Assembly: GCA_037444025.1 (NCBI GenBank)
Contig: JBBINE010000006.1
Span: 1,935 to 40,935, forward strand
Reading direction: 5' to 3'
Source of the DNA: a bacterium
GTDB taxonomy: Bacteria; Patescibacteriota; Minisyncoccia; UBA6257; HR35
DNA length: 39,001 nt
The notes under the pieces: generated by a model
What the model was told of the DNA's origin: nothing
What the model saw: only the letters and a program-made list of their open reading frames with translations
The model's database searches: none
In this document: positions 1 to 30,475 of the stretch, piece after piece
How positions within the stretch are numbered: the stretch's first letter is position 1
Layout: the number at the start of each line of letters is the position of its first letter
Program-made: the position numbers and the translations under genes

Positions 1-906
1 TGAATTAAAAATACCAGCTACATACAAAGAATTGTTATACAAAGTCATTGCATAAACGGTACCATTAATATCAAAAGAATTGAAAACAAACCAGTTATAC
101 TTAAGAGAATTATCTAAATGCCTCCATTTGTTGTTTTCGTAAATGTAAGTATTTATACTGTTAGCTCCAATAGCTAAAAACATTTTTTGGTTACTTAAAG
201 GAACGAGGGAAACATTAGCTATCATTTTCATTTTTATATCTACGGGCATAGGCGATTGCCAATTCGTTATATCATAAGGATTTACAGATCTAACAGTATA
301 AACTTGATAATTATACCTCGTACCTATTTGTCTAATAGCTCCTAACCAAATATTGTTAGCAGAGTCAAAAGTAAGAAAAGGTCTAGAATAGTAACTATAA
401 GAATCTTTCTCTAAAGCAAAATAACTATCACTCCAGGAAATTTCAAAAAGAGAAGTAGTTGTGGTAGTAGTTGTAGTAGTTGTAGTGTAGTCTAAAGAAT
501 TGATATGTACTTCTCCCTTTAAAACACAAATATTGCCTGTACAATTTGTAGCTAAGAAGATATTAAAAACTCCATCGATTTCTTTATAACTAACAAAAAA
601 ATCATCTGTATTAAATTGCACTGAACCAGCGGGAGTCCAATTTCTTCCATTAGAGGAATAGCTGTATTCAATAAAATTATTTTTTCTGTAAAAAGACCAG
701 TAGATTGAGTTGATGGAATCAAAAATAACTTTTTGTTGAAAAGGAGAACCAATATTACTTGAAGCCGAAGAAGTAGATATTAAAGAAACGGGGATATCTT
801 CTGTGGATTGATTTTGAGCACGAACTATATTATTTATCACGAAAAAAAAGAAAACAAAAAAAATTATTGATAAAAAGTATATATTTTTTTTATAATAACC
901 TTCCAT
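1..906 (-). CDS. Exported protein of unknown function; C-terminus lies beyond the window edge (signal peptide, Asp-box-like motif, poly-Thr linker)
   Basis: Absent from the ORF track because it has no stop inside the window. I checked all 302 in-frame triplets from ATG at 906 down to nt 1 and found no stop; an in-frame stop lies just upstream at 928-930. The N-terminus MEGYYKKNIYFLSIIFFVFFFFVINNIVRAQNQ looks like a signal peptide. SSNGRNWT resembles an Asp-box (SxDxGxTW). Eleven consecutive Thr codons lie at 454-486. Confidence 0.65.
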   Translation of the reverse strand, partial: MEGYYKKNIYFLSIIFFVFFFFVINNIVRAQNQSTEDIPVSLISTSSASSNIGSPFQQKVIFDSINSIYWSFYRKNNFIEYSYSSNGRNWTPAGSVQFNTDDFFVSYKEIDGVFNIFLATNCTGNICVLKGEVHINSLDYTTTTTTTTTTTSLFEISWSDSYFALEKDSYSYYSRPFLTFDSANNIWLGAIRQIGTRYNYQVYTVRSVNPYDITNWQSPMPVDIKMKMIANVSLVPLSNQKMFLAIGANSINTYIYENNKWRHLDNSLKYNWFVFNSFDINGTVYAMTLYNNSLYVAGIFNS

Positions 907-957: not shown

Positions 958-1010
958 AAAAATAAAATCTGTCAACCACAGATCATCAAAAAACAGGTGA
1001 TCCTTGTGGT
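958..1010 (-). terminator. Putative intrinsic terminator after the LamG-pilin gene
   Basis: An imperfect hairpin starts 3 nt after the stop at 1013-1015. Positions 975-980 (ACCACA) pair with 1005-1010 (TGTGGT). Positions 981-985 (GATCA) pair with 998-1002 (TGATC). There is a 2-nt bulge and an 8-nt loop. On the minus strand it is followed by GACAGATTTTATTTTT. Confidence 0.4.
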
Positions 1011-1012
1011 GT

Positions 1013-2251
1013 TTAACTTTGACATGCCGTTTCTCCTTTTTCATCTTTTTTATATATATTTAAAACATCCTCGTCGGAAATAGCTTTGTTATAAAGACGA
1101 AATTCATCAATTTTACCTTGAAAATAAAAGTTTGTTCCTGTCCTTATTCCCATATAGACATCATTATTGCTAGCTAAAGGTATATCCACAAAATCATCAA
1201 AACCAATAAAATTACCATTAAGATAAAATCTGATTCTTTTATCTGAAATATTTCTGCTAATAACTATATAATTCCAATTATTTTCTTGAGCTCTCATGTT
1301 AGAAGGTTCCTGGATCTCTTCCCAACTTCCATCTCCATGATAAAAAGATATTTTTCCATCAGTTTCCATTATCACTTCGTACTCATTGTTATAGTGTTTA
1401 AATATTATCGATTGTCTACCTTTTGATAAATTAGTAGGACAAAGCCAAAAGGAAACAGTTAAATCTCTATCAATTTTTAAGGATGTAGTATTGGGAAATA
1501 AAACATAATCATCACTACCATCAAAAGCCAAAGCACTTGCTACCCTTCCTGCTACCCAACCAGAAGTTGTAGTCCAGTTGAAATTGTTAAGTGTTCCATT
1601 GTTTCTATATCCTGAAAGATCATAAGCTAAAGTTCCTGTTACTGTATCAAAAGACCAATAAGCTACTAATCCACTTTGAGGCGAAGGAAAATTAAGATAG
1701 TTACCTATCTCATAAAGAGTTGGTTCAAAACCACCATCAGTTATCATTCTAGACGATAAAGCTCGACTTTCAAGTCGAGCTGTTATTTTGTATTTATTTC
1801 CTTTTACTTGGTAGGCATAAAAATAATCTTGATTATTAGAAGGATCAAGGGGTAAAATACTTAAGCTTAAAAATTTAGCGGAAAAAAAATTTATTGGAAT
1901 CCAACCACTACCATCAATACTACTTGGAGTAGCCACACATCTATAAACAAAAGGAAAAAAAATTTTAGGTAAATTATAACTACCACAAGTTGAACTTGAA
2001 TCCGGAAGAGAAAGATAGATAGTATTTTCATTACCAAGAGCTAATTCGGGGTTGTCTAGTAGGAATGTTTTTAAAGCTGTGTCTAAAACTTGCAAATCAT
2101 TTAATCTACGGTTATCCCTAACTCTTTTATAAAGTTCAACATTGTTCCAAGTATAAAAAAATAAAGAAAAAGAAAAGCCTAAAATTATCAAAACCACTAA
2201 AATTTCTACTAATGTCAGTCCTTTTTTACAAGAATAGGTGTTTAAAATCAT
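1013..2251 (-). CDS. Type IV pilin-like protein fused to a C-terminal LamG/ConA-like (Laminin_G_3-type) domain
   Basis: The track ORF begins at TTG 2257; the first ATG is at 2251. MILNTYSCKKG|LTLVEILVVLIILG is a prepilin cleavage/methylation signal (Gly-1, Glu+5). Residues ~1-190 are colinear with the pilin at 6116..6742. Residues ~195-414 carry LamG-type blocks (LVAYWSFD, ALAFDGSDDYV, LTVSFWL, RFYLNG, GKIDEFRLYNKAIS). Confidence 0.8.
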   Translation of the reverse strand: MILNTYSCKKGLTLVEILVVLIILGFSFSLFFYTWNNVELYKRVRDNRRLNDLQVLDTALKTFLLDNPELALGNENTIYLSLPDSSSTCGSYNLPKIFFPFVYRCVATPSSIDGSGWIPINFFSAKFLSLSILPLDPSNNQDYFYAYQVKGNKYKITARLESRALSSRMITDGGFEPTLYEIGNYLNFPSPQSGLVAYWSFDTVTGTLAYDLSGYRNNGTLNNFNWTTTSGWVAGRVASALAFDGSDDYVLFPNTTSLKIDRDLTVSFWLCPTNLSKGRQSIIFKHYNNEYEVIMETDGKISFYHGDGSWEEIQEPSNMRAQENNWNYIVISRNISDKRIRFYLNGNFIGFDDFVDIPLASNNDVYMGIRTGTNFYFQGKIDEFRLYNKAISDEDVLNIYKKDEKGETACQS

Positions 2252-3347
2252 TAACAAGAGAGTAAATAATTCCTGACAAAAAAATTAAAGATAAGATAAC
2301 TACTAAAGAAGAAGGAATTTTGAAATAAGTTTTTTCCTTTAGTTTTAAATAAATAAGAGAAATAACAAGAAGATTAAAAGCTAAAAAAAATTCACTAATA
2401 AAGCCTATAAGCGCAACTAAACGAGAAGGGTTTAAAAATATTAAAAGAAAAACGGAAAGAGCAATTAAAATATTAGCAGCCCTTGGTGATAATTGGTAAT
2501 CATGAATGAGTCCTCTTTTAAGGTAAAAGCAAAAATCTACAAAAACCATATTCAAACTAGCCATGATAATAATTAAAAGAGTTAAAAATTTAGGAAGATA
2601 GGGATACAAACTTTCTATTGATTCTTCGCTTACCTCAAAACCTAAAAAACCTACTATAGCTAGAACGTAGAATAGATAAAGAAAAGTAATAGTTAAGAGG
2701 GACCAAAAGTTTATCTTAAAGTACAAACTTTTATTTTTACCTACAAGATCATAAACTAAAGCCATCGAAGAAATGCCTGAAAAAGCAAAAAGAAGAACCC
2801 CATAAGGTAAAAAAGGTTCTTGGAAATTGTTTAAAGCTAAAAAAATATTGTTTATCTCAAAATAAGGCAAAAGAAATAGAGCAATAGATAAAAAAAGAAA
2901 CAATATACCCAAACTTAAAGTACTTTCCATTCGAGTAAACAAAGAAAATTCTTTAAAGATAAAATAAATGTTAAAAAGAGCAAAAAATAACTTGAACCAA
3001 AAAGAATTTATTCCAGGAAAAACTAATGACCAAAATTTAGCAAAGGCAATAAAATAAACCAAAAAAACTCCCAGCATACCAAAATAATCAAAAAACCAAA
3101 CTAGGTGTTTAAAAGCAGGATGTAAGTATTTAGCAGTTAATCCGGGTAAATTATGTTTACTTTCTGATCTAAATAAAATCTCTCCCAAAAGAAGATGAAG
3201 GATAAGAAAAGAAAAAAACCAAAAAAATAACCAGAAAAGAAAAAAATAACCACTTTGAGAAAAAGTATAAGGTAATACAAATATCCCTAAACCTATAATA
3301 GTGCTGATAATAATAAAATAAGCTTTAAGACTATTGCTTATGATCAT
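2226..3347 (-). CDS. Polytopic membrane transporter, amino-acid permease-like (Aa_trans / Trp-Tyr permease type)
   Basis: 373 aa, almost entirely hydrophobic, with about 11 helices by eye. The N-terminal IIGLGIFVLPYTFSQSG resembles the helix-1 motif of amino-acid/auxin-type permeases. ATG at 3347. It overlaps both neighbouring genes. Confidence 0.55.
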   Translation of the reverse strand: MIISNSLKAYFIIISTIIGLGIFVLPYTFSQSGYFFLFWLFFWFFSFLILHLLLGEILFRSESKHNLPGLTAKYLHPAFKHLVWFFDYFGMLGVFLVYFIAFAKFWSLVFPGINSFWFKLFFALFNIYFIFKEFSLFTRMESTLSLGILFLFLSIALFLLPYFEINNIFLALNNFQEPFLPYGVLLFAFSGISSMALVYDLVGKNKSLYFKINFWSLLTITFLYLFYVLAIVGFLGFEVSEESIESLYPYLPKFLTLLIIIMASLNMVFVDFCFYLKRGLIHDYQLSPRAANILIALSVFLLIFLNPSRLVALIGFISEFFLAFNLLVISLIYLKLKEKTYFKIPSSLVVILSLIFLSGIIYSLVNDFKHLFL

Positions 3348-3750
3348 CTCCTCTAATTATTTTTTCTATATAAGTTAAACCCCATAAAATAAAAACCGTC
3401 AAAACAGAAACCAAAAAACCTTCGAGATAAAAACCTACGCCAATAGAAGCTCCAATCGCAGTTGTTACCCAAAGAGCTGCAGCTGTAGTAAGACCAATAA
3501 TTCTCTCTTTATCCAAAAAAATAAGTCCTGCGCCTAAAAAACCAATTCCTACTACGATATTAGCTAAAACTCTTGTAGGATTATTTGCTTCCAAAGAAAC
3601 ACCTAAATAAGAAAAAAGAGCTGCCCCTAAAGAAACTAAAGCAAAAGTTCTTAAACCTGCTTGTTTTTTAAACAAACTTCTTTCTGCTCCAATAAGCATT
3701 CCCAACACAGCGGCTAAAAATAGTCTATAGATTATTTCCGTAGAAATCAT
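3331..3750 (-). CDS. mgtC: MgtC/SapB family membrane protein (membrane domain only)
   Basis: RLFLAAVLGMLIGAERSLFKKQAGLRTFALVSLGAALF matches the MgtC family N-terminal signature. The 139-aa protein has 4-5 hydrophobic helices and no soluble C-terminal domain. Confidence 0.8.
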   Translation of the reverse strand: MISTEIIYRLFLAAVLGMLIGAERSLFKKQAGLRTFALVSLGAALFSYLGVSLEANNPTRVLANIVVGIGFLGAGLIFLDKERIIGLTTAAALWVTTAIGASIGVGFYLEGFLVSVLTVFILWGLTYIEKIIRGDDHKQ

Positions 3751-4294
3751 CTTCTTGAATTAATTTTATCATCTTATCTACTAATTTTATAGGATCTGAA
3801 TCCCAAATTATTTTGCCGTGATCTTTTCTTGCTTCTTTAACAATATCTTCCATGAATTTTTCTTCACCTCCAGAACCAACCAAAATACCCATTGGTTTTT
3901 TCTCTTCAAAAGCAATAATAAATTCATTTAAAGTACCCGTTCTACCGCAAATAAAAATAACCCCGTCTCCTGATCTAACTAAAATTAAGTTTCTACCTGA
4001 GTGACCCAAAGCAGTAAAGAATATATAATGATGATAATCGAAAGGAAGCTCAAATACTTCCTTGTGTTCTCTGGGATCTTTAGCAGGAGAAAATCCCAAA
4101 ACCATTCCTCCATTTTCATAAGCACTTTGAGCAACTAAATGAGGAATTCCCGTAGTAGCGCCAGTCAAAGTAACCACTCCTTTTTCGGCTAGTCTTTTCC
4201 CTATTTGAAAAGATAATTCTTCTATCTTGGGACAACAATTTTCTAAAACAGCTGAACCAGAAATACTTATTTTTATTTTTTTCTCAGTTGTCAT
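3725..4294 (-). CDS. LOG/TIGR00725-like Rossmann-fold protein (SLOG superfamily)
   Basis: The motifs VVTLTGATTGIPHLVAQSAYENGGMVLGFSP and ICGRTGTLNEF have the spacing of lysine-decarboxylase-like/LOG family proteins (GG..G.M ... PGG.GT..E). 189 aa. Confidence 0.6.
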   Translation of the reverse strand: MTTEKKIKISISGSAVLENCCPKIEELSFQIGKRLAEKGVVTLTGATTGIPHLVAQSAYENGGMVLGFSPAKDPREHKEVFELPFDYHHYIFFTALGHSGRNLILVRSGDGVIFICGRTGTLNEFIIAFEEKKPMGILVGSGGEEKFMEDIVKEARKDHGKIIWDSDPIKLVDKMIKLIQEDDFYGNNL

Positions 4295-4326: not shown

Positions 4327-4506
4327 TTATTTATAGAATAAATAATTCAAAATATAATCTCTTTCATTTTTAAATTTTTTCTTTCTTCTTAAAACAACAT
4401 TTTGTTTTTTGCTTAAGTTATGACATACCCCTGATATTCTTCTTAGAATTTTTCCTTTTTTAGTAATCTTAAATCTTTTTTTGATAGCGTCTTTTATTTT
4501 AGTCAT
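4327..4506 (-). CDS. rpmI: 50S ribosomal protein L35
   Basis: Missed by the ORF track (59 aa). The translation is MTKIKDAIKKRFKITKKGKILRRISGVCHNLSKKQNVVLRRKKKFKNERDYILNYLFYK. It shows the L35 pattern (K..A.KKRFK.T..GK..RR....H.L.KK) and sits in the canonical position directly after infC. Confidence 0.85.
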   Translation of the reverse strand: MTKIKDAIKKRFKITKKGKILRRISGVCHNLSKKQNVVLRRKKKFKNERDYILNYLFYK

Positions 4507-4524: not shown

Positions 4525-5025
4525 TTACTTTTTAGCTAACAATATTTGTAAAAAGTTAGGCATTTTTTTAATTGGACTAACTATTTTATAAGGAATATCT
4601 ATTAACTGAAGAAAATTATTAAATTTTTCTTCGGCCATATCTGTAAAAAATTTCTCTCGACCTTTCAAAACCAACTTCACAATTAGTTGATGACCTTCTT
4701 CTAAAAATTTCTTAGATATTTCTGCTTTTCTTTTTAAATCAAAAACAGCTTCGTTCAGACTAATTCTAATCTCCTTAGTTTCTTTAACTTTCTTTCGCGA
4801 TTCTCTTTTTTTCTTTTCTTGTTGATAAAGAAAAAAACTATAATTGCCGAGCTTCACAACAGGGGGCTGAGCTTTTTCATTAACCATTATCAAATCCTTT
4901 TTTTCCTCGTCGGCTAATTCTTTAGCTTTACTTAAAGTCATCACTCCGATCTGCTTACCATCAGTTCCTATAACTCTAATCTTGCTTGGATTTAATTTTG
5001 TTATTTTTGGATCTATCAGTTTCAA
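4525..5025 (-). CDS. infC: Translation initiation factor IF-3
   Basis: IRVIGTDGKQIGVMTLSKAKELADEEKKDLIMVNEKAQPPVVKLGNYSFFLYQQEKK plus a C-terminal domain (KEIRISLNEAVFDLKRKAEISKKFLEEGHQLIVKLVLKGRE) is typical of IF-3. The longest ORF starts at TTG 5025. No in-frame ATG lies upstream of the conserved core, so a non-AUG start is expected, as in other infC genes. Confidence 0.9.
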   Translation of the reverse strand: MKLIDPKITKLNPSKIRVIGTDGKQIGVMTLSKAKELADEEKKDLIMVNEKAQPPVVKLGNYSFFLYQQEKKKRESRKKVKETKEIRISLNEAVFDLKRKAEISKKFLEEGHQLIVKLVLKGREKFFTDMAEEKFNNFLQLIDIPYKIVSPIKKMPNFLQILLAKK

Positions 5026-6115: not shown

Positions 6116-6742
6116 TTACCAGTTAGCATAAAATCGAGTTCCAGTCGTTGTAGGCAGGAGATTTTTATTGGGACCAACTTCATACAGAACACTAAAATCT
6201 CCTCCATCGTTAGCACCAGCATTGTTACTTTCTAATCTAGCATTTAATTCATAACTAAAGTCGGTTTTACAAGTATAAGTGTAGTAATATGAAGGATTTT
6301 CAGTGTTAGAAGGATCAAGAGGAAGAGCGGGTAAATTTATCAAAGCCACTGAAGAAAAATTAATTGGAAGCCAACCTGTACCATTAACAGCTCTTGAAGT
6401 AGTTCCTTGAGCTTCAAAAGCTCCTGATGGACCAGATGGAGCTGAACCATTACCGAGACTATAAGCAATAGAAGCAAAAATAGTATCAGTAGCTGATCCT
6501 CCTACACATTTAGTATTAGTAGCTCCGTCTAAAATAAGAGTTTTAGTAGGGTCCATACTTGTTTCAGAAATATAGGCATCAAGAGCTTGGGATAAATTTC
6601 TTAAATCTCCCATTCTTTGAGTATCTCGACCTCTTTTAAAAATTTCCGCTGGTTTTATAATTACAATTAAAACTCCAGCCAAAACACCTATAATAGCCAA
6701 TACGACTAATAGTTCAATTAAGGTAAAACCTTTTGTTTTCAT
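6116..6742 (-). CDS. Type IV pilin (probable major pilin)
   Basis: MKTKG|FTLIELLVVLAIIGVLAG is a canonical prepilin-type N-terminal cleavage/methylation signal (Gly-1, Glu+5). The gene is 208 aa, monocistronic, and has a consensus promoter upstream. Confidence 0.9.
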   Translation of the reverse strand: MKTKGFTLIELLVVLAIIGVLAGVLIVIIKPAEIFKRGRDTQRMGDLRNLSQALDAYISETSMDPTKTLILDGATNTKCVGGSATDTIFASIAYSLGNGSAPSGPSGAFEAQGTTSRAVNGTGWLPINFSSVALINLPALPLDPSNTENPSYYYTYTCKTDFSYELNARLESNNAGANDGGDFSVLYEVGPNKNLLPTTTGTRFYANW

Positions 6743-7854: not shown

Positions 7855-9000
7855 ATGAAAATTCTAATGGTAGGGTGGGAACTACCTCCCTTTAATAGTG
7901 GAGGATTAGGAGTAGCCTGTTTTCATTTGGCGAAAGAGCTAAGTAAAAAAATTGATTTAACTTTTACCCTACCTTCAAAACTACCAATTACCTCAGTACC
8001 TTTTAAAGTAATCTTTGCTAGCAATTATTTTAAAAAAAATTTAGGCTACATAGAAGCTAAATATTTTTTTAATGACTCTACCTATGAATTGGTTTTTTCT
8101 TACGGAGAAAGAATTTTAGCAGTTTATCGAGAAAAACCAGATATAGTTCATGGTCATGATTGGCTTTCTCTTCCAGCTACCTTTTTCTTAAAAGAATATT
8201 TTAATGTTCCCGCTTTACTCCATGTTCATTCAACAGAAATTGAAAGAACGGGTAATAGTCCTAATCCGATAATTTTTGATATAGAAATAAATTATTTTCA
8301 AAAAGTTGATTATTTACTGCCTGTCAGTGATCTAACTAAAGAAATATTAATTAAAATTTATCATATTCCCGAAAATAAAATTTTTACTCTTCCTAATGGC
8401 TTCGAATGGGGAGAAAATCCATCTCGCTTACCTTCTTATTTAATCAACTTAAAAAAAGAAGGTTGGCAGATAGTTCTGTTCGTTGGTAGACTAGTTTTAC
8501 AAAAAGGACCAGACTATCTGTTACAAACGATACCTTGGGTTAAAAAAGTTATGCCTAAAACTAAATTTATCTTTGTTGGTTCTGGAGATATGTTTCCTTA
8601 TTTAATTAAACTTGCTAATGAGTTAGCTGTTCAAGAAAATGTAATATTTACCAATTTTTTAAGAAATAAGGAGTTATGGGGAATTTATCAAATCTCAGAT
8701 GTTTTGGTTGTTCCTTCGGTTGCTGATCCATTTGGTTTAGTTCCTTTAGAAGGAGTAAACCAAAATATACCAGTAATCATTTCTAAGACCACTGGAGTTG
8801 GTTGCTATTTGAATCATATCTTAAAATTTGATTTTTGGGATATTAAAGAAATGGCCAATAAGATCATAGGCATTTTGAAATATAAAAATTTAAAAAATTG
8901 TTATCTATGGAACTTAAGAAGTGAAGCTCAATTAAAATTTGATTGGTCTAAAACTGCAAATAACTTATGTGATTTTTATCAAAAAATATTTTTCTCATAA
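7855..9000 (+). CDS. GT-B glycosyltransferase, glycogen/starch-synthase-like (GT4/GT5 type)
   Basis: MKILMVGWELPPFNSGGLGVACFHLAKEL is a GGL-type donor-loop N-terminus like GlgA. The C-terminal Rossmann half contains VPSVADPFGLVPLEGVNQNIPVIISKTTGVG. It is the first gene of the alpha-glucan operon. Confidence 0.75.
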   Translation: MKILMVGWELPPFNSGGLGVACFHLAKELSKKIDLTFTLPSKLPITSVPFKVIFASNYFKKNLGYIEAKYFFNDSTYELVFSYGERILAVYREKPDIVHGHDWLSLPATFFLKEYFNVPALLHVHSTEIERTGNSPNPIIFDIEINYFQKVDYLLPVSDLTKEILIKIYHIPENKIFTLPNGFEWGENPSRLPSYLINLKKEGWQIVLFVGRLVLQKGPDYLLQTIPWVKKVMPKTKFIFVGSGDMFPYLIKLANELAVQENVIFTNFLRNKELWGIYQISDVLVVPSVADPFGLVPLEGVNQNIPVIISKTTGVGCYLNHILKFDFWDIKEMANKIIGILKYKNLKNCYLWNLRSEAQLKFDWSKTANNLCDFYQKIFFS

Positions 9001-9012
9001 AAAAGAAAAAAG

Positions 9013-10203
9013 ATGCCTTCAGTAGTTTTTTATTTCAAAATCCACCAACCATTTCGTCTTAGACATTATACTGTTTTTGATATAAATAAATCGAACGATT
9101 ATTTCGATGAGGAAAGAAATAAATTTTATCTTGACCGTGTTACCCATAAATGTTATATACCTACCTTAAAAATAATAAAAGAGTTAATCAATGAAACCCG
9201 GGGAAAGTTTAAAGTTAGTTTTGGTATTACAGGAACTCTCATTGAGCAATTAGCTAAATGGTACCCTGAAGTTTTAGATCTTTTCAAAGAGTTATCTAAA
9301 ACTGGTTCAGTTGAATTTGTAGGTGAAACATATTATCATTCTCTCGCTTCTCTTTATTCATTTAATGATTTCAAAGAACAGGTAATTAAACATCGACAAC
9401 TTATCAAAAAATTATTCAATCAAGAATCAAAAGTTTTTGCCAATACTGAATTAGTCTATTTCGATGATTTAACCAAAGTAGTAAAAGAACTGGGATTTGA
9501 AGGAATTTTAACTGAAGGTGTTCCTTGGATATTAGGATGGAGGAATGCTAATTTTATCTATAGTGATCCATATAACTATTTAAAAATATTACTTAGAAAT
9601 TTTCAATTGGCTGACGATGTTAGTTTTAGATTTTCAGCTAAATGGTGGGAAGGTTGGCCTTTAACCGCAGATAAATTTGCTCACTGGCTTGCACAAATTA
9701 ATGGTAACGGAGAAGTGATTAATTTGTTTATGGATTTTGAAACTTTTGGGGAACATCAATGGGAAGAAACAGGCATTTTTGAGTTTTTAAAATCTTTACC
9801 TTTTGAAGTTTTAAAACAAAAAGATTTAAATTTCGCTTTACCTACAGAAGCAATACAAAAATATCCTACTCGAGGAACATTTTCTTCACCAAAACCCATC
9901 ACCTGGGCTGATACTGAAAGAGATTTAACAGCGTGGTTAGGAAATGAAATGCAAAAAGAATGTCTTGATCTTCTTTTTAGCTTAGAAAAAGATGTTCCCT
10001 TTTACCTTAAAGATAATTGGAGAAAGCTACAAACTGCTGATCATTTTTATTATATGTGCACCAAGTGGTTTGCTGACGGAGATGTGCATAAATATTTTAG
10101 TCCCTATGAAAGTCCTTATGAGGCTTATTTAAATTTTCGCAATGTCTTAGAAGATTTTAAATTAAGAATCAAAAGCAATGTCAAGATATCTTTTCGAAAT
10201 TAG
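9013..10203 (+). CDS. Glycoside hydrolase family 57 protein (alpha-amylase-like)
   Basis: FYFKIHQPFRLR (the GH57 region-1 HQP motif), SFGITGTLIEQL, VEFVGETYYHS and FMDFETFGEHQW (an Asp/Glu-containing catalytic region) are typical of short GH57 enzymes. Confidence 0.85.
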   Translation: MPSVVFYFKIHQPFRLRHYTVFDINKSNDYFDEERNKFYLDRVTHKCYIPTLKIIKELINETRGKFKVSFGITGTLIEQLAKWYPEVLDLFKELSKTGSVEFVGETYYHSLASLYSFNDFKEQVIKHRQLIKKLFNQESKVFANTELVYFDDLTKVVKELGFEGILTEGVPWILGWRNANFIYSDPYNYLKILLRNFQLADDVSFRFSAKWWEGWPLTADKFAHWLAQINGNGEVINLFMDFETFGEHQWEETGIFEFLKSLPFEVLKQKDLNFALPTEAIQKYPTRGTFSSPKPITWADTERDLTAWLGNEMQKECLDLLFSLEKDVPFYLKDNWRKLQTADHFYYMCTKWFADGDVHKYFSPYESPYEAYLNFRNVLEDFKLRIKSNVKISFRN

Positions 10204-22560: not shown

Positions 22561-23430
22561 TTAAAATTTAAAAAAACTAAAATAAAAAGTAGCTATCTTT
22601 TCTCCAGCTAACATAGAAAATAATGTTCCTAAAAATAAAAAAGGAATAAAAGGAATGGGTTGGCTAAAAGAGTTATCTGATGATTTAATTTTGTTTTTTA
22701 TAAATAAAACTACACCCCAAAAACTTCCCAATAAAGAAGCTAGCATAATTGATAAAATAGCATCTCCTAATTTAAAAAACAAACCAATTAAAAAAGCAAC
22801 CTTAACATCTCCAAAACCCATCCCTTTACCGGCGGTAATTAAAAAAATAAAAAGAAAAAGAAAAGAAGATAAAAAAGCAGATGTCAAAAAATCGAAAATA
22901 ATTTTTTTCTCAGGAGAAACAATTGAATAATTAAATTCTACTAGAGAGTAAAAAAAGTTATTTAATAAAAAAGAAAAATCTCGAGAAGGTAAGTGAAAGC
23001 CTATTTTAAAAAAAAGAAAAGTAATACCTATGATCACACCTCCAAGAATAAAGCGATCATCAACTAAAAAAGTTTTAAAATCATAAAGAGCAAGAACAAA
23101 AAGAATGCTCAAAAATAAAAAATAAAAAGTAAATTCAGCTAAAGAAAAAAAAGTTAAATTAGTTTCTAAAGATAAAAAAAGTAAATATGTCCAGATAGCT
23201 GTTACTATCTCTATTAAGGGATAACGAATTGATATTTTAGAGCCGCAATTGATACAACGTCCTTTTTGAAGAACAAAACTTAAAATAGGTATTAGTTCTT
23301 TCCAGGTTAATATTTTTTTACAAAAAGGACACTTGGAACGAGAAAAAATAAAGCTCTCACCTTTTTCCAACCTTAGAGCAATATTATTTAAAAAAGACCC
23401 CCAGAATAAACCGAAGAAAAAAGCTATCAT
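22561..23430 (-). CDS. pilD: Prepilin peptidase (A24 family, PilD)
   Basis: GSFLNNIALRL, a zinc-ribbon-like pair CPFCKK...CINCGSKISIRYPLIEIVTA, and GMGFGDVKVAFLIGLF (the second catalytic Asp box). 289 aa and polytopic. Confidence 0.9.
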   Translation of the reverse strand: MIAFFFGLFWGSFLNNIALRLEKGESFIFSRSKCPFCKKILTWKELIPILSFVLQKGRCINCGSKISIRYPLIEIVTAIWTYLLFLSLETNLTFFSLAEFTFYFLFLSILFVLALYDFKTFLVDDRFILGGVIIGITFLFFKIGFHLPSRDFSFLLNNFFYSLVEFNYSIVSPEKKIIFDFLTSAFLSSFLFLFIFLITAGKGMGFGDVKVAFLIGLFFKLGDAILSIMLASLLGSFWGVVLFIKNKIKSSDNSFSQPIPFIPFLFLGTLFSMLAGEKIATFYFSFFKF

Positions 23431-23438
23431 TACTGTTT

Positions 23439-24644
23439 TTAGAAAGTTCTAATATATTTAGTTAAAGACATAAGAGGAACTAATAAAGAAGCTTCTAAAA
23501 GACCTAAACCTCCTCCTAAAATAAAAATCAAAATAGGTTGCAATGCTTCTCCCATATTAGTTAACTGCGTCTCTATTGTTTGATTATAAAATTGCAAAAT
23601 AGTAAAAGATGTTTCTACTAATTGCCCAGTTTTTTCTGCTATTGACAATGTTTCCACCATGATATGAGGAAAAAGATGGGGGAATTTTTGTAAACTTGAA
23701 CTTAAAGGTCTACCTCTTTTTACTTCTTCAATAACCGAGTCAATAGCTTCTTCGTATAGAGGATGATCAATACTTGTTTTAATAATAGTTAAAGCTTCAA
23801 TGATGGGAACTCCACCTTTAGATAAATAATATATTGATTCTAAAAATTGAGCTGCATAAATATTTTGAACTACTGGACCAATAATAGGCAGATTACCAAT
23901 TAAAGAAAAATAAATAACCTTGCCGTCTCTGCTTCTAAAATAGCGAGGTAAATAATAAACCAAAAATCCAATAATAATTAAAATTACAATAAAGTTTTTA
24001 GTCAAAGCGTCTGATATAGTCTGAAATGTTTTGGTAATTGTGGGTATAGGAATATCATTTTCTACAAATATTTTTGTTATCTGAGGAATTACTAAATAAA
24101 AAAGAGCAATCATAATTCCAATAAAAAGAACTAAAACAAAAACAGGATAAATTAAAGCTTGGATAAGCTTTCCTTTTAATCTAATTTGATTTTCAATATG
24201 ATCAGAAAGATATTTTAAAGTTTCATCCAGAGATCCACTAGCTTCTCCAATTCGCACCATCCCTATAAAATAACTATCAAATACATCAGAAAATTTTGAT
24301 AATGAATAGGAAAAAGGTAAACCGGCAACTAAATCATTATAAATTTGAATAAGAACTTCTTTGAAATAAGAATTTTTAGTTATTTCAGAAAGAATTTTAA
24401 CAGATTCATCAATAGGAGTTTTAGAAGAAACAAGATAAAAAAGTTGACGAGTAAACAAATAAATTTCTTTCTTGCTTGGTTTCAAAAATAAAACAGGAGT
24501 GAAATCTAAATTTTTTTCAATTAAACGAGTAACTAAAAGATTTTTGTTTTGAAGAATTTTTAATGCATCATCTTTGTTTTGTGCTTCAATAATACCTTCT
24601 ACTTTTTTACCTTCATTATCGAAAGCTTTAAATTCAAATTTCAT
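23439..24644 (-). CDS. pilC: Type IV pilus platform protein PilC (GspF family)
   Basis: 401 aa with the duplicated T2SSF architecture (cytoplasmic helical domain followed by TM helices, twice). Motifs include MVRIGEASGSLDETL and LSIAEKTGQL. ATGA junction with pilT. Confidence 0.88.
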   Translation of the reverse strand: MKFEFKAFDNEGKKVEGIIEAQNKDDALKILQNKNLLVTRLIEKNLDFTPVLFLKPSKKEIYLFTRQLFYLVSSKTPIDESVKILSEITKNSYFKEVLIQIYNDLVAGLPFSYSLSKFSDVFDSYFIGMVRIGEASGSLDETLKYLSDHIENQIRLKGKLIQALIYPVFVLVLFIGIMIALFYLVIPQITKIFVENDIPIPTITKTFQTISDALTKNFIVILIIIGFLVYYLPRYFRSRDGKVIYFSLIGNLPIIGPVVQNIYAAQFLESIYYLSKGGVPIIEALTIIKTSIDHPLYEEAIDSVIEEVKRGRPLSSSLQKFPHLFPHIMVETLSIAEKTGQLVETSFTILQFYNQTIETQLTNMGEALQPILIFILGGGLGLLEASLLVPLMSLTKYIRTF

Positions 24645-25705
24645 TCTTCAATAATGTATTTTAACTTAGATGGATTTAAACTAAATTCAATAGCTTTCTC
24701 TATGGATATTTCATTTACTTGAACCAAGTTAGCTAAAGATCTATCTAAAGATATCATTCCTTCCTGAAGACTGGTATCAATAACGCTATCAATTTGGTAA
24801 ATTTTATTTTCACGAATAAGATTTTTAACAGCACTATTAGCTATCAAGACTTCACAAGCAGGAATTCTACCGCCTTTTATTCGAGGAACTAATCTTTGAG
24901 AAAGAATGCCAATCAAAGAAGAAGCTAATTGAAATCTAGCTTGATCTTGTTGATTTTCAGGAAGTACATCTACGATTCTATCAATGGTTTGAGAAGCAGA
25001 GTTAGTATGAAGAGTTCCTAAAACTAAATGCCCTGTTTCAGCTGCTGTTAAAGCGATAGAAATGGATTCTGGATCTCTTAATTCTCCTATCATAATTACA
25101 TCAGGATCTTCTCTTAAGGCCGCTCTTAAAGCCCTATGCCAAGAAAATGAATGAGTGGGAATCTCTCTTTGGGAAATAACTGACTTATCAGGTTCAAATA
25201 AATATTCTATTGGTTCTTCAATAGTAATAATATGAGCAGACCTACGGTGATTAATAGCATCAATTAAAGAAGCTAAGGTAGTTGATTTTCCCATTCCTGC
25301 TGGACCTGTAATCAAGATAAACCCTTGACGTCTTTCAATAAATTCGTTCAATATGGGAGGCAAATTTAATTCCTCAATACTTTTAATTTCGTTGGGAATC
25401 AACCTAAAAGCACCAGCGCAACCATTAATCTGAAAATAAATATTACTTCTAAATCTATTTTTCTCGTCGAGCGAAAAAGAAAAATCTATATCTTTATATT
25501 TGTATAATCTTTTTTTATTACTTTCATTGTCTATCAAATCAAGCAAAATTCTTTCTGTTTCTTCTCGGGTAAAAATATTAAACCTTGTTAAAGGATAAAT
25601 ATCACCATCTTTTCTCATAATAGGAAAATTTCCTGGAATAATATGAAGATCTGAAGCTCCTTGTTTGGTAATAAAATAAAATAGTTCTCTTAATCTCTCG
25701 TCCAT
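24641..25705 (-). CDS. pilT: Type IV pilus retraction ATPase PilT
   Basis: GASDLHI, Walker A GPAGMGKSTT, ITIEEPIEY, ALRAALREDPDVIMIGELRD, AAETGHLVLGTLHTNSA and AVKNLIRENKIYQI (the PilT-specific AIRNLIRE-like motif). 354 aa. Confidence 0.92.
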   Translation of the reverse strand: MDERLRELFYFITKQGASDLHIIPGNFPIMRKDGDIYPLTRFNIFTREETERILLDLIDNESNKKRLYKYKDIDFSFSLDEKNRFRSNIYFQINGCAGAFRLIPNEIKSIEELNLPPILNEFIERRQGFILITGPAGMGKSTTLASLIDAINHRRSAHIITIEEPIEYLFEPDKSVISQREIPTHSFSWHRALRAALREDPDVIMIGELRDPESISIALTAAETGHLVLGTLHTNSASQTIDRIVDVLPENQQDQARFQLASSLIGILSQRLVPRIKGGRIPACEVLIANSAVKNLIRENKIYQIDSVIDTSLQEGMISLDRSLANLVQVNEISIEKAIEFSLNPSKLKYIIEE

Positions 25706-27411
25706 TATATTGATTTAAAGACTTCTTCTAATGAAACTAATCCCTGACTTGCTTTTATTATACCATCTGCTTTAAAAGAAACAAAACCTTGTTTTTTAAC
25801 TACTTCAAAAATTTCTTGTTCACTAGCATGAGAAAAAACTAATTCCGCAACTTCTTTATTCATTTCAAACATTTCAAAAATACCAATTCTGCCTGTATAA
25901 CCACGAAAATGACATTTTTCGCATCCTTTTGAGTAAAAAGATTTAATTTCTAAGTTTTGATACTCCCGAGGAGCATCTTGTAAAACTTCTTTAACTTCTT
26001 TCAACAGTTCGTCAGATATCTCTTTTTCTTCACGACAGTAAGAACAAAGTTTACGAACCAGTCTTTGGGCAATCACTAAGTTAACTGTTGAAGGAATAAA
26101 ATAAGATTTAACTCCCATGTCGATAAGTCTCGGAATAGCTCCTACAGCGCTATTAGTATGCAAAGTAGAAAAAACAATGTGACCAGTTAAAGCTGCATGT
26201 ACTGCAAGCTCAGCGGTTTCTTCATCTCTAATCTCTCCGACCAAAATAACATCAGGATCTTGTCTTAAAATTTCCCTTAAACCTTGAGAAAAAGAATAAC
26301 CTATTTCTGGTCTTATTTGAGATTGGTTAATCCCTAAAATTTTATATTCAACTGGATCTTCCAAACTAACAATATTTATTTTTTCGTTGTTTACCTCTTG
26401 AACTAAAGCATAAAGAGTAGTTGTCTTACCTGAACCCGTTGGTCCAGTAACCAAAATCATGCCATAATTTTTCCTTATATTTCTTTTTACTAATTCATAA
26501 TGATATTCACTAAAACCAAGTTCTTGAACTTTTTTTAAACCCACTAATGGATCTAAAATTCTAATAGCTACCTTTTCTCCATTTATAGTCGGAAATATTC
26601 CCACACGAAAGTCTATTTCTCTTCCTTGAATATTGCTTCTAAATCTTCCATCTTGGGTTATTCTTGTTTCATCTAGCTTTAAGTTGGTTAAAATTTTGAC
26701 TCTATTTACCAAAGGAAGATGAATATCCTTAGGAATATAGACAAAAATTTTTAAATCTCCATAAATCCTCAATCTAATCCTTGCTTTGTCGGGTAAAGGT
26801 TCTAAGTGAATATCCGAAGCTTTAAGAGAAATTGCTTTTCTTAAAAGCAACTCAAAAATTCTAATGACTGGCGCTTCTTCGGCACTAGTAACAAATCCTT
26901 CTAAAGAAGGAGTTTTTTCTGTTTCACCTTTTTTACCTGATACAGTCCTGAAATCTAAAATTAATTTTTTAATTTCTTCATCAAAATCATGGTAATCTTC
27001 TAAATGAATATAAAAATCCTTAATAGAAATTAAAAATAATTTAATCTCTATGTTGAATTTTTCTTTTAAGGGAGCAATAACTTTGTTTTCTATTTGAAAA
27101 TTTTGGGGATCAACTACACCGAGATAAAGAACATTGTTTTTAAACTCCAAAGGTAAAACCATGAAAGAACGAGCCATAGCTTCAGGAATTTTTTCTAAAG
27201 CTTCTCGAGAAATAATTTCATCTTCATCAAATTTTTTAATCGGTAGATTAAAAATTTTTTGTTTTAATTCTAAAATATCTTCAGCTGAAACCAAATCCTT
27301 TAAAAACAAATATTCCTCAGGACTTACATTATGAATCTTAGCCTCATTAAACCATTTTTCTATTTCAGGATATTTTTGCTTTAATTCTTTAATTAATATT
27401 TCTTCTTGCAT
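25705..27411 (-). CDS. pilB: Type IV pilus assembly (extension) ATPase PilB/GspE
   Basis: 568 aa with a GspE_N-like N-terminal domain. Walker A GPTGSGKTTT, SLEDPVEY, LRQDPDVILVGEIRD, LTGHIVFSTLHTN, and a tetracysteine motif (CSYC ... CEKC). Confidence 0.92.
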   Translation of the reverse strand: MQEEILIKELKQKYPEIEKWFNEAKIHNVSPEEYLFLKDLVSAEDILELKQKIFNLPIKKFDEDEIISREALEKIPEAMARSFMVLPLEFKNNVLYLGVVDPQNFQIENKVIAPLKEKFNIEIKLFLISIKDFYIHLEDYHDFDEEIKKLILDFRTVSGKKGETEKTPSLEGFVTSAEEAPVIRIFELLLRKAISLKASDIHLEPLPDKARIRLRIYGDLKIFVYIPKDIHLPLVNRVKILTNLKLDETRITQDGRFRSNIQGREIDFRVGIFPTINGEKVAIRILDPLVGLKKVQELGFSEYHYELVKRNIRKNYGMILVTGPTGSGKTTTLYALVQEVNNEKINIVSLEDPVEYKILGINQSQIRPEIGYSFSQGLREILRQDPDVILVGEIRDEETAELAVHAALTGHIVFSTLHTNSAVGAIPRLIDMGVKSYFIPSTVNLVIAQRLVRKLCSYCREEKEISDELLKEVKEVLQDAPREYQNLEIKSFYSKGCEKCHFRGYTGRIGIFEMFEMNKEVAELVFSHASEQEIFEVVKKQGFVSFKADGIIKASQGLVSLEEVFKSI

Positions 27412-27433
27412 GATTTAGATATTTTACCAAAAA

Positions 27434-27700
27434 TTAAAACAATTTTTCTTTACCTAGTTCCTCTGGAGTAATAGGAGGTATTTGCAATTCCACATCTGGT
27501 AATTTATCAATAATATTATCTTTCAAGCCTTTATAATCATAAGTTTTCATATAGGTAGCTATTTGAGAAACTTGCTGAATTTCAGTATCTTGTTCTAGAT
27601 ATTCTTTTTTGAAGATACCAAAATACCAAAATAAAACAAGAATAAAACCTGTTAATAAAATCACGTATATTAAAAAGAATAGCACTGTCCTTAAGCTCAT
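27434..27700 (-). CDS. Small bitopic membrane protein of unknown function within the pilus operon
   Basis: 88 aa with a single N-terminal TM helix (VLFFLIYVILLTGFILVLFWYFGIF) and a polar tail of about 55 aa. Its ATG overlaps the stop of the preceding PilO-like gene (ATGA). I recognise no family. Confidence 0.55.
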   Translation of the reverse strand: MSLRTVLFFLIYVILLTGFILVLFWYFGIFKKEYLEQDTEIQQVSQIATYMKTYDYKGLKDNIIDKLPDVELQIPPITPEELGKEKLF

Positions 27701-28227
27701 TTTTCAGGAAGAAAGTAAGTTTCGACCTCGAGACTAGCCTTTTGATCTCGACTAAAGGAAAATTTTCTAATCTTCATAATTCTGACATTGCTTTCGATAG
27801 CTTTGACTATTTTTAGAACCTGGTCTTCGTTCCCTTGAATATCTAAATTAAAACGGATAACTTTTAAGGGAAGCACATAGGATGAATTTTTATCTTCTTC
27901 AATATTAAAACTGAAACCCTTAAAACTCATATTAGCTGAACTAAAGATAGCAGCTAAAGAAAAATATAATTCTTCTATCTTGGGTTCAGGTGGTATCCAG
28001 TTATTTAAAGAACCTCTACGTTTAATTAAAGTTTGTAAGGTTTCAGTATTTTTTAGTTCCTCAAGGTTAGCTTCAATAGCTTTAACCTGCTCCTCTCTGC
28101 TTTTAAGTTCATTAAATTTTTGAACCAACTGATAAGTATTTTGATAATTAGGATAAATTTTATAAAAAAGGAAATAAGCAATAAACAAAAATAGAAGCGT
28201 AGGTATAAATTTTATTATGTTATTCAT
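27697..28227 (-). CDS. PilO-like pilus alignment protein (architecture-level call)
   Basis: 176 aa with an N-terminal TM helix, a coiled-coil (QLVQKFNELKSREEQVKAIEANLEELKN), then an alpha/beta domain of about 90 aa. It sits after the PilM and PilN-like genes. ATGA junctions on both sides. Confidence 0.6.
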   Translation of the reverse strand: MNNIIKFIPTLLFLFIAYFLFYKIYPNYQNTYQLVQKFNELKSREEQVKAIEANLEELKNTETLQTLIKRRGSLNNWIPPEPKIEELYFSLAAIFSSANMSFKGFSFNIEEDKNSSYVLPLKVIRFNLDIQGNEDQVLKIVKAIESNVRIMKIRKFSFSRDQKASLEVETYFLPEK

Positions 28228-28709
28228 TTGTAAAAACTATCGTTTATCCCCAAGGTTACTTTAAGATTAATTAATTTATTATCTTCGGAAATTTGTGGTT
28301 GTAAAGAAGATTTCAAAACAAAATCTGGATGATTTTTAAAGTAATTAGCTATTCTTATATAGTCACGCCAATTATTAATTTTAAAGGAAAACTCAATTTC
28401 CTTTTTATCATTATCGTAAGAAAAGGAATCAATAAAAATGAATTTAGGCATTCTGGCTTTAAAATTAGCTACTACTTGATTGACTGATTTTTTGTTTTCG
28501 CTAATTCTTCTTAGGTGATCAGCTTGAGAAAAAACATAATAAACACCCTCCTGTTTTAAATTAGTTAGAATCTGGGATTCTTTTTGTTTTAATCCAGATT
28601 CCAGAAAAGCAATTTTTTCTTCTAAAATACCATTAAATTTAGTAAGACTAAAGAAAAACAAAAACTCTAAAACAATAAGTATGATAAAAGGTAAAAAAAT
28701 TTTTACCAT
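28224..28709 (-). CDS. PilN-like pilus alignment protein (architecture-level call)
   Basis: 161 aa with an N-terminal TM helix, a short coiled-coil, then an alpha/beta domain. It sits immediately after pilM. The canonical cytoplasmic INLLP peptide is not visible (the N-terminus is MVKIFLPFII). Confidence 0.5.
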   Translation of the reverse strand: MVKIFLPFIILIVLEFLFFFSLTKFNGILEEKIAFLESGLKQKESQILTNLKQEGVYYVFSQADHLRRISENKKSVNQVVANFKARMPKFIFIDSFSYDNDKKEIEFSFKINNWRDYIRIANYFKNHPDFVLKSSLQPQISEDNKLINLKVTLGINDSFYK

Positions 28710-28761
28710 TAATTTTTTCTAATTTAAATTTATTATTGTTAATTATATCATACTTTTTAAA

Positions 28762-29799
28762 TTATTTTACTTTTCTCAACAAAACACCAACAGCTTGACT
28801 AAAAACGGTTGTTTTTTCTTTTAAAGATAAAAATTTTTCTCCCAAAACAAAATTAGTTAAAGACAAAATTTCTTGTTGGTAATTAGAAAGTTTTGGAAGT
28901 AATACTTCTTCAAAGCCAGGAAATAAGCAACCTCCTCCGGTCCAATAAATTTTTTCTATTCTCAAAAGAAAATTATTTTCAATTTTGAGGATTTCTTCTT
29001 GAATAGATCGGGTAAAATTATTAACAAAATCATCAATCAAATATTTAACCTCTTGATCTTCTGGATTTACTAAAAAACCTGTTTTTTTAAGAAAATCAAA
29101 AACATCTTCTTCTGAAAATTGAAGAATTTTTATAATTGATCCAACTAAATCATAAATTTTTATCCTTAGTTTGTTAGTATAAATAACCTTTCCTTCTTTT
29201 ACTAAGAAAACGCTTGACAAAGAGTGCCCAAAATCGATTATAAAATAAATTCCCGGTTTAGAAGCAAAATAAGGTTCAAGGTTAAATTGCTCAGGACTAT
29301 GTCCTAAATTTTTTAACTGAGATAATTTAGCTAAATTTTCAAGTTTCTTTAAGTAATTCTTGGGAATAGCTGAAAGAAAAACTAACCATTGCTTGTTGTC
29401 TTCGGTTTCAAACTGAAGATAACGATATTCTATTTCAACCTCATCTAAAGGTAAAGGTACTTGCTTTTGGGATTCAAACTTAATTACCTGGGACAAACTT
29501 TTTTCAGGAATATTAGGGATTAAAAAATTAGAATAAAAAACATAAGGACTTAAAACATTAAAAAAAGCTTTTTTGGTTTTCATTTTTGACTCTTTTAGAA
29601 AAGAATCTATTATTCCAGCAATATTTTCTTCTAAAATATAAGAAGATAAGCTAAAATCTCTATAGCTAAAAATAGGAATCAAACCAAAATTTATTATTTC
29701 TAATTTTTCTTTCTTTAAAACAGCTTCAATAATTTTTATATTCAAAGAACCTAAATCAATGCTTAAAAAGCGCTTATTACCTAACAAGGGAAAAACCAT
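28762..29799 (-). CDS. pilM: Type IV pilus assembly protein PilM (actin-like ATPase fold)
   Basis: The track start at 29814 is TTG; the first ATG is at 29799 (MVFPLLGNKRFLSIDLGSLNIKIIEA, the phosphate-1-like motif). It also has IIDFGHS and a C-terminal YWTGGGCLFPGF (the adenosine/phosphate-2 region). It is the first gene of the pilus operon. Confidence 0.8.
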   Translation of the reverse strand: MVFPLLGNKRFLSIDLGSLNIKIIEAVLKKEKLEIINFGLIPIFSYRDFSLSSYILEENIAGIIDSFLKESKMKTKKAFFNVLSPYVFYSNFLIPNIPEKSLSQVIKFESQKQVPLPLDEVEIEYRYLQFETEDNKQWLVFLSAIPKNYLKKLENLAKLSQLKNLGHSPEQFNLEPYFASKPGIYFIIDFGHSLSSVFLVKEGKVIYTNKLRIKIYDLVGSIIKILQFSEEDVFDFLKKTGFLVNPEDQEVKYLIDDFVNNFTRSIQEEILKIENNFLLRIEKIYWTGGGCLFPGFEEVLLPKLSNYQQEILSLTNFVLGEKFLSLKEKTTVFSQAVGVLLRKVK

Positions 29800-30475
29800 A
29801 ATTAAATTATACAATTACTTTAAAGAAATTATTGCTCCTAAATTTTGTTTAGAATGTTTAAAATATCAAAAATTCTATCTGTGCCCTGACTGTTTAATGA
29901 AAACAGGATTTGAAATCAATTTTTCTTGTCTTGAATGCGAACAAAGATTAGTTTTAACTCAACTAAAAAAACATCCATTTCCACATCGAAAGTTAATAAA
30001 TTTTTTAATAAGTTTTAATAATTATGAAAACAAAATTTTATCTGATTTAATTATTAAAGGAAAAACGGAAGGAATTTTTGAAATTTTTATTGATTTTGGC
30101 ATTTATATTTCTAATGAAATGAAAAATTGTAATCTAAAAAATTATTTCTTAGTACCAGTACCCATTACTTCCAAAAAACTTATCCAAAGAGGATTTAATC
30201 AGTCAGAAGTTTTGGCTCAAACTATCAGTAAAAAATTGGGCTTAAAAATTTACCACGACTTACACAAAATAAAAGAGACACCTGACCAAAATGAATTAGC
30301 ATATGAAAAAAGACTAAAAAATCTAAAAAATTCTTTTAAAACAACCTCTCAAGCACCTGCTTATGCAATTTTAATTGATGACATTAAAACCACTGGCACA
30401 ACTCTTAAAGAATGTGCTTTAGCTTTAAGATCATCAGGAACTAAAAAAATAATTGCTTTAACAATACTTAGATAG
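29759..30475 (+). CDS. comF: ComF family protein (phosphoribosyltransferase domain, ComFC-like)
   Basis: An N-terminal Cys pair (CLEC...CPDC, a second pair further on), LVPVPITSKKLIQRGFNQSEVLA, and the PRT motif ILIDDIKTTGTTL. Its ATG at 29759 lies inside the pilM coding region on the opposite strand. Confidence 0.85.
   Translation: MLKKRLLPNKGKTIIKLYNYFKEIIAPKFCLECLKYQKFYLCPDCLMKTGFEINFSCLECEQRLVLTQLKKHPFPHRKLINFLISFNNYENKILSDLIIKGKTEGIFEIFIDFGIYISNEMKNCNLKNYFLVPVPITSKKLIQRGFNQSEVLAQTISKKLGLKIYHDLHKIKETPDQNELAYEKRLKNLKNSFKTTSQAPAYAILIDDIKTTGTTLKECALALRSSGTKKIIALTILR

Follow-up and report, generated by a model that had tools for sequence, protein, structure and literature searches.

The 39-kb window analysed here (the term denotes the whole stretch of DNA, from a Paceibacterota bacterium) encodes on its minus strand, at 1013..2251, a modular type IV pilin, henceforth the LamG pilin, in which a full-sized pilin module is joined to a β-sandwich of the laminin-G/concanavalin A-like (LamG/ConA-like) type. 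By analogy with characterised lectin pilins, it appears fairly likely that this protein is processed by the prepilin peptidase PilD and displays its LamG module, probably at the tip of the pilus, as a glycan-binding adhesin. The initial annotation of this DNA had proposed a pilus subunit carrying a LamG module on the scaffold of a short pilin encoded elsewhere in the window. That architecture passed all of the computational tests proposed with it, and the adhesin role stands as an analogy with the known lectin pilins. The gene and the parts of its product are as follows:

1013..2251, minus strand: gene for the LamG pilin, a modular type IV pilin of 412 amino acids (open reading frame, N_methyl and Laminin_G_3 matches, AlphaFold2 model)
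2219..2251, minus strand: leader peptide, residues 1-11, MILNTYSCKKG, with Gly-1 at its end (N_methyl, TIGR02532, consensus of the homologues)
2054..2218, minus strand: α1 helix, residues 12-66, hydrophobic in its first half and then amphipathic, the predicted assembly interface in the filament core (AlphaFold2 helix 14-66, profile matches)
1682..2053, minus strand: pilin head, residues 67-190, with Cys89/Cys105 and the GW(I/L)PxNF and LPxDPxN motifs (alignment A1, strands within 77-183, colinear with the 208-residue pilin)
1037..1681, minus strand: LamG/ConA-like β-sandwich, residues 191-405, with conserved end strands and a highly variable core, 256-375 (PF13385, Foldseek, profiles against the Protein Data Bank (PDB), conservation)

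The open reading frame (ORF) starts with an ATG at position 2251, and an alternative TTG upstream, at 2257, is also open. Its N-terminus, MILNTYSCKKG|LTLVEILVV, has the make-up of a class III signal peptide, that is, a short positively charged leader ending in Gly-1, a hydrophobic stretch and a glutamate (Glu16) at position +5, and the predicted PilD cut falls between Gly11 and Leu12. The prepilin signal had been pointed out in the initial annotation, all of whose quoted motifs are present in the translation, and two profiles recognise it: Pfam N_methyl at residues 8-28, barely above its cut-off (21.6 versus 21.2 bits), and the NCBIfam prepilin domain TIGR02532, also above its cut-off (18.4 versus 16.3 bits). 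Glu16 is found without exception in an alignment of 49 homologues (A1, which was used for conservation, for the AlphaFold2 model and for the profile searches), and the consensus of the homologues around the cut site is KG|FTLIE. In many members of the family, Ser rather than Gly directly precedes FTLIE (the consensus of alignment A3 reads ..SFTLIE), as in loci L005 (7465-8646) and L010 (6899-8083), which is unusual for a site of prepilin peptidase cleavage.

The AlphaFold2 model of the LamG pilin, which was computed with A1, has a mean predicted local distance difference test score (pLDDT) of 89.1 and a predicted template modelling score (pTM) of 0.86. It comprises a helix (14-66), a small sheet (77-183), an all-β domain (195-387) and a terminal helix (393-403), and pLDDT is mostly above 90 in the helix and the head. 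The first two elements, an α1 helix of 53 residues and a β-sheet head, give the model the 'lollipop' shape expected of a type IV pilin. When the A1 profile was compared with PDB sequences, it matched the N-terminal helices of Geopilin (E=4.6e-8) and PilA (E=4e-4), as well as those of GspG and Streptococcus sanguinis PilE1. Besides Glu16, the residues that are invariant in A1 include Cys89, Cys105, Trp117 and the D136-P137-x-N139 motif.

A second pilin gene of the window encodes a paralogue of the same module:

6116..6742, minus strand: short pilin of 208 amino acids, devoid of the extra module, a candidate major pilin (N_methyl E=3e-8, BLASTP E=1e-27)

The short pilin aligns with the LamG pilin by BLASTP at E=1e-27, with 34% identity over 193 columns (residues 10-183 of the LamG pilin versus 4-190), and the two proteins have the shared blocks on which the initial annotation had based their paralogy. 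The rank of major pilin that the initial annotation had given to the short pilin is not supported by these results. An exact look-up of the short pilin in an index of contigs gave no record. Its own AlphaFold model is mediocre (pLDDT 75), and a fold search of PDB with this model gave no match at E<1. Either the head of the family may differ in structure from those of solved pilins, or the short-pilin model may be too weak for such a search. With the head tied to no solved pilin fold, it is the signal motif, together with the helix and the profile matches, that assigns the family to the pilins. The placement by MAFFT suggested that the short pilin might end in the remnant of a first LamG strand, an idea that we rejected because the local alignment score of this C-terminal tail was trivial.

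The second module is recognised by Pfam Laminin_G_3 (PF13385) at E=4.2e-25 (89.1 bits versus a cut-off of 27.6), with residues 244-396 covering profile positions 1-150 of 151, and is modelled as a two-sheet β-sandwich of the jelly-roll type. In a Foldseek search of PDB with the LamG-pilin model, only this module was matched (E from 1e-12 to 1e-10), the matches being lectin-like domains of Trypanosoma trans-sialidases, the HCN domain of clostridial neurotoxin and domain 4 of the Geobacillus arabinanase AbnA (5hon, with a TM-score of 0.78 on the target). The A1 profile likewise matched PDB entries 4qvs (E=1.6e-23) and 5hon (E=3.9e-15), and the matches of both searches include carbohydrate-binding LamG-like domains, such as AbnA domain 4 and the N-terminal lectin domain of a sialidase. 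The LamG/ConA module of the initial annotation is thereby borne out by profile, by predicted all-β fold and by structural matches. Two findings had been named there as fatal, a C-terminal part lacking any LamG profile match or fold and an insignificant alignment of the two pilins; both were looked into, and neither came true.

Complete machinery for a type IV pilus is encoded in the same window, in an operon identified by Pfam matches, which brings together a prepilin peptidase, the assembly ATPase and the platform protein:

22561..29814, minus strand: type IV pilus machinery operon
28762..29814, minus strand: PilM
28224..28709, minus strand: ORF of 161 amino acids in the position of PilN, with no significant family match
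27697..28227, minus strand: PilO
25705..27411, minus strand: PilB (T2SSE)
24641..25705, minus strand: PilT (T2SSE)
23439..24644, minus strand: PilC (T2SSF)
22561..23430, minus strand: PilD, prepilin peptidase (A24_N_bact and Peptidase_A24)

The LamG-pilin gene lies some 20 kb away from this operon, in agreement with its initial description as a pilin gene outside the pilus operon. A prepilin-type N-terminus was found in just two ORFs of the window, those of the LamG pilin and the 208-residue pilin.

Proteins of this kind are widespread among related bacteria. A protein search with the LamG pilin returned 123 clusters, of which about 100 are full-length (400-410 amino acids) and have both domains. 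Only a few members of these clusters bear the name of an organism, and those are Parcubacteria or Patescibacteria. The Parcubacteria/Paceibacterota are abundant, uncultured and ultra-small bacteria, believed to live in attachment to other cells. When one genome per species was scanned, relatives of the LamG pilin turned up at no fewer than 428 loci, often several of them in the same genome; of the 80 loci listed, nearly all are labelled Paceibacterota, Wolfebacteria, Liptonbacteria, Colwellbacteria, Brennerbacteria or Patescibacteria. The pilin module (residues 1-190) by itself had 2927 matches at E<=1e-3 among 1.84 billion representatives. In the best 150 of these, where LamG domains were called with a local LamG hidden Markov model and ten proteins were spot-checked with Pfam, 107 have LamG and 9 are pilin-only (no longer than 250 amino acids), most of the others being longer proteins with no LamG detectable by that model; the query, itself a LamG pilin, biases the share of LamG. 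The spot-checked proteins P0135, P0150, P0177, P0220, P0254 and P0265 carry other C-terminal modules on the same pilin scaffold, namely DUF2341, RCC1 repeats, Kelch, LVIVD, the DUF5122 β-propeller and the FGE-sulfatase (C-type-lectin-like) domain. Taken together, the LamG majority and the variety of other modules indicate that the scaffold is a general carrier pilin, for which LamG is the commonest cargo in this query-biased count.

Conservation differs sharply along the protein. Mean identity to the query in A1 is 40-52% in the pilin module, 56% in the first LamG strands, 18% in the LamG core (256-375) and 39% in the last LamG strands. The low identity of the core is compatible with a variable ligand-binding region, without proving one. 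Comparison with the 94%-identical orthologue of locus L003 gave a ratio of nonsynonymous to synonymous substitution rates (dN/dS) of 0.19, which shows that the LamG-pilin gene evolves under purifying selection. At the strain level, the idea that the LamG core diversifies under selection was considered and rejected, as dN/dS is 0.17 there versus 0.18 for the pilin module, and the L003 orthologue has 27 evenly spread differences.

Paralogues within single genomes display a further pattern, which is not present in the window. The metagenome-assembled genome (MAG) KatS3mg096 (BPJI01) has four such LamG-pilin loci (L010, 6890-8083; L011, 6883-8107; L022, 5795-6940; L029, 6887-8413), which have in common a 5' block of about 750 nt with 97-99.5% DNA identity. 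This block begins shortly before the ATG and ends near codon 246, so that it contains both the pilin module and the LamG strands that come first. In the four copies, the LamG cores behind it are unrelated (16-25% amino-acid identity), and some 25 codons at the 3' end are alike again (82-86% identity at the protein level). The sole difference in the block between L010 and either L011 or L029 is the change of a conserved Arg codon from AGA in L010 to TGA, while L022 has the same TGA and a few further differences. Three of the four copies thus contain a premature in-frame TGA, which is an ordinary stop codon in that genome, and the LamG core of L029 is full of stops. In a second MAG (CAZHOF01), L023 (462-945) and L052 (3223-3706) have a common 5' block of 484 nt with 97.5% identity. 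The pattern in KatS3mg096 may represent cassette-style variation by gene conversion, with some copies silent, or it may be an assembly artefact of repeats. That the LamG core of Parcubacteria pilins is in general a swappable specificity cassette, exchanged by recombination between expressed and silent copies, we regard as doubtful. If it were so, the logic would be like that of Neisseria pilE/pilS, except that the lectin module, and hence partner recognition, would be varied, and the gene of the window would be a single-copy, locus-anchored member of the repertoire. A search of metagenome contigs with an exact 32-mer from the window's LamG-pilin gene gave no match.

On the precedent of other type IV pili, the LamG prepilin would be held in the membrane after synthesis by its hydrophobic N-terminal helix and cut after Gly11 by the PilD of 22561..23430. 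The machine made up of PilB, PilC and PilM-O would then insert it, via α1, into a filament that consists mostly of short pilins like that of 6116..6742. The LamG sandwich would be exposed outside the filament, most likely at the tip, and would bind to a partner cell or substrate through a glycan on the latter's surface or, with lower probability, a protein, so that PilT-driven retraction could draw the cell to its target. The variable LamG core would set ligand specificity, while the pilin module, together with the LamG strands at either end, would serve as a constant carrier. It is reasonable to suspect that partners are recognised by a pilin family like this one, which occurs throughout the lineage in multiple copies and joins a highly variable lectin-type module to a constant carrier.

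Several observations weigh against this interpretation. The N_methyl score of the LamG pilin is marginal and its residue at +1 is Leu, where Phe is usual; a prepilin-motif scan of the ORFs of the window detected no core minor pilins. A location restricted to the tip does not follow from the pilin module, which has its full size and is conserved to the degree of a structural pilin. The conserved LamG residues belong to the generic signature strands of PF13385 and include no identifiable sugar site, and LamG domains are also known to bind proteins or to act structurally, with neurexin, pentraxin and the neurotoxin HCN domain among the matches.

The completeness of the pilin module, which retains Glu+5 and is conserved like the head of the short pilin, could mean that the LamG pilin is itself a structural (major or co-major) subunit of a thick pilus with lectin domains along its whole length. 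The prevalence of LamG over pilin-only proteins among the closest representatives of the scaffold and the presence of several copies per genome would fit such a filament, and Raynaud et al. (PMC8179133) allow a location in the filament body, given a linker that is flexible enough. We nevertheless consider this arrangement unlikely. The LamG count is skewed by the query, an extra domain of 24 kDa on each subunit would be unprecedented in bacterial type IV pili, and the modular pilin PilB, when modelled in the filament body, gave steric clashes (PMC8179133). In addition, the pTM of the LamG pilin suggests a rigid rather than a flexible junction between its modules.

Another protein must prime assembly if minor pilins of the HIJK type, which were not seen in the window, are missing, and the LamG pilin could be that protein, with its LamG module capping or priming the filament in the manner of GspK or PilX-type minor pilins, or binding another protein of the pilus or the envelope of its own cell. 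LamG folds are frequent mediators of contacts between proteins, as the matches to neurexin, pentraxins and neurotoxin HCN recall, and a model of TafC from the haloarchaeal tat-fimbriae makes it an activator of assembly, placed where the filament ends (PMC11821415). Priming, however, predicts a conserved surface, yet nothing in the protein is conserved less than the LamG core (mean identity of 18%, versus 43-56% elsewhere), and paralogues of the same genome that combine near-identical pilin modules with unrelated cores fit variable external ligands better. A function as an assembly factor is thus improbable, and display of the LamG module as an adhesin, probably at the pilus tip, continues to be the interpretation that we prefer.

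On the minus strand, the co-directional gene chain infC-rpmI-SLOG-MgtC-permease-pilin ends with the gene of the LamG pilin; its other members are:

4525..5025, minus strand: infC, at the head of the chain (IF3 Pfam annotation in the syntenic loci)
4327..4506, minus strand: rpmI, at the head of the chain (L35 Pfam annotation in the syntenic loci)
3725..4294, minus strand: SLOG cluster-4 or TIGR00725-like (LOG-like) protein (LDcluster4 E=2.4e-30; TIGR00725 at 77 bits, under its cut-off)
3331..3750, minus strand: membrane protein of the MgtC family (Pfam MgtC E=5.5e-36)
2226..3347, minus strand: multi-pass permease with weak similarity to Aa_trans and Spore_permease, whose stop overlaps the pilin start by 26 nt

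By their coordinates, the overlaps SLOG/MgtC, MgtC/permease and permease/pilin amount to 26, 17 and 26 nt, which confirms the chain of overlapping genes described in the initial annotation. The order SLOG-MgtC-permease-pilin, with its permease/pilin overlap (26, 20, 14 and 20 nt in orthologous loci), recurs in each of the six loci with a pilin at least 41% identical to that of the window (L001, L003, L004, L005, L007 and L008; 41-94% identity). These six loci also retain TsaD, infC and rpmI, and L001, L004 and L005 have genes for a DksA-like protein and PNPase further upstream. Because housekeeping neighbours are retained and only close orthologues are involved, the synteny looks like general collinearity within one clade, not like a dedicated functional module. 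A coupling of the LamG pilin to SLOG (a nucleotide-processing enzyme), MgtC and the permease, which would serve the capture or uptake of nutrients at the contact site instead of general adhesion and which the retained overlap and gene order might suggest, is very improbable, since these loci keep the unrelated housekeeping genes just as well and since the order is absent from every examined locus with a pilin no more than 35% identical, all of which lie in other contexts. The infC-rpmI-rplT operon is widely conserved in bacteria; in L001 (5249-12115, KatS3mg096), SLOG-MgtC-permease-LamG pilin-groES-groEL are inserted between rpmI and rplT.

At the 3' end of the gene, the terminator of its own that the initial annotation had assigned to it did not hold up. 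The terminator scan made no call, and the only candidate is a weak one, as stable as shuffled sequence:

971..1017, minus strand: imperfect hairpin across the stop codon, weak terminator candidate (minimum free energy -13.8 kcal/mol, z=-0.81)

The downstream gene (1-906, minus strand), which extends beyond the window, has a product with a signal peptide of the Sec type and eleven Thr residues in a row; this protein has no Pfam match and is present in L003, and is not kept downstream in the other orthologous loci. Elsewhere in the window, a glucan-metabolism cluster (7855-13608, plus strand) comprises a GT4/GT5 glycosyltransferase, GH57, a glycogen-synthase-like and a GDE_C-like protein, which is notable for a reduced genome, and 35615-36919 (minus strand) is an ORF of 434 amino acids with no significant family match.

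Comparison with known systems places the LamG pilin outside several established families. Membership of the major pseudopilins of type II secretion (GspG, TIGR01710) was rejected at 25.6 bits versus a cut-off of 88.85, the match being restricted to the N-terminal helix, and membership of the ComG family was likewise rejected on score. To our knowledge, no PF13385 modular pilin from the candidate phyla radiation (CPR) has been characterised. Haloarchaeal TafC (NF052521; PMC11821415) resembles the LamG pilin in that an N-terminal module like the major subunit is followed by a C-terminal laminin-G-like domain, and TafC is modelled at the filament end. Its filament is unrelated, as it depends on Tat export and donor-strand exchange and is not built of type IV pilins. 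The LamG part of our protein matches NF052521 at E=1e-13 and with 51 bits, far below the family cut-off of 410, so the LamG domain is all that the two proteins have in common, and membership of the TafC family was rejected.

Within the CPR, lectin-like minor pilins were reported from Saccharibacteria TM7x, and of its minor pilins PilX1 and PilX2, the latter contributes to host binding, which sugars inhibit (PMC11623550). These proteins belong to a different CPR class, and no Pfam-detectable LamG was reported for PilX1. Moreover, they are encoded beside other minor pilins, in contrast to the LamG pilin with its place in the infC-rpmI-SLOG-MgtC-permease chain.

The characterised protein closest in plan is S. 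sanguinis PilC (PDB 7OA8; Shahin et al. 2023, PMC9934059), whose lectin module binds sialylated glycans and heparin probes and which has been modelled at the tip of the pilus. In both proteins a class III signal peptide precedes a pilin moiety, and a lectin module of the ConA-like type lies at the C-terminus. PilC, however, has an unusually short pilin moiety and an intervening Ig-like module and needs PilA for its stability (PMC9934059), whereas in the model of the LamG pilin a full pilin head is joined directly to LamG, with no Ig-like module. S. sanguinis PilC was found neither by a single-sequence search with the LamG pilin nor among the top 50 Foldseek matches. The A1 profile matched its lectin module (7oa8) weakly, at E=0.0033, with positions 256-400 aligned to PilC 308-451. 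Orthology was rejected, as the match is weak and limited to the lectin module, and the two proteins are probably independent fusions within one superfamily.

The architecture itself has been catalogued. In the InterPro survey of Raynaud et al. (2021), in which a modular pilin combines IPR012902 with a domain not specific to type IV pili, as the LamG pilin does, no other architecture was as frequent as IPR012902-PF13385, which counts 229 proteins (PMC8179133, Dataset S1). Several representatives in the legend of their Fig. 8 are from the CPR, among them Ca. Magasanikbacteria and Ca. Wolfebacteria, for which a match of representative to architecture could not be confirmed, and their modelling of the modular pilin PilB was compatible only with the tip (PMC8179133). 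With that catalogue and the characterised PilC of S. sanguinis, the architecture of the LamG pilin was already known in kind, and the gene of the window is a useful annotation and a lead rather than a surprise. What the present analysis adds to domain counts, and what is new only as description, is the family-level picture: a carrier paralogous to the short pilin, a locus conserved in one clade, a variable core, genomes with multiple copies and the size of the family, which supplies concrete proteins for glycan arrays or host pull-downs.

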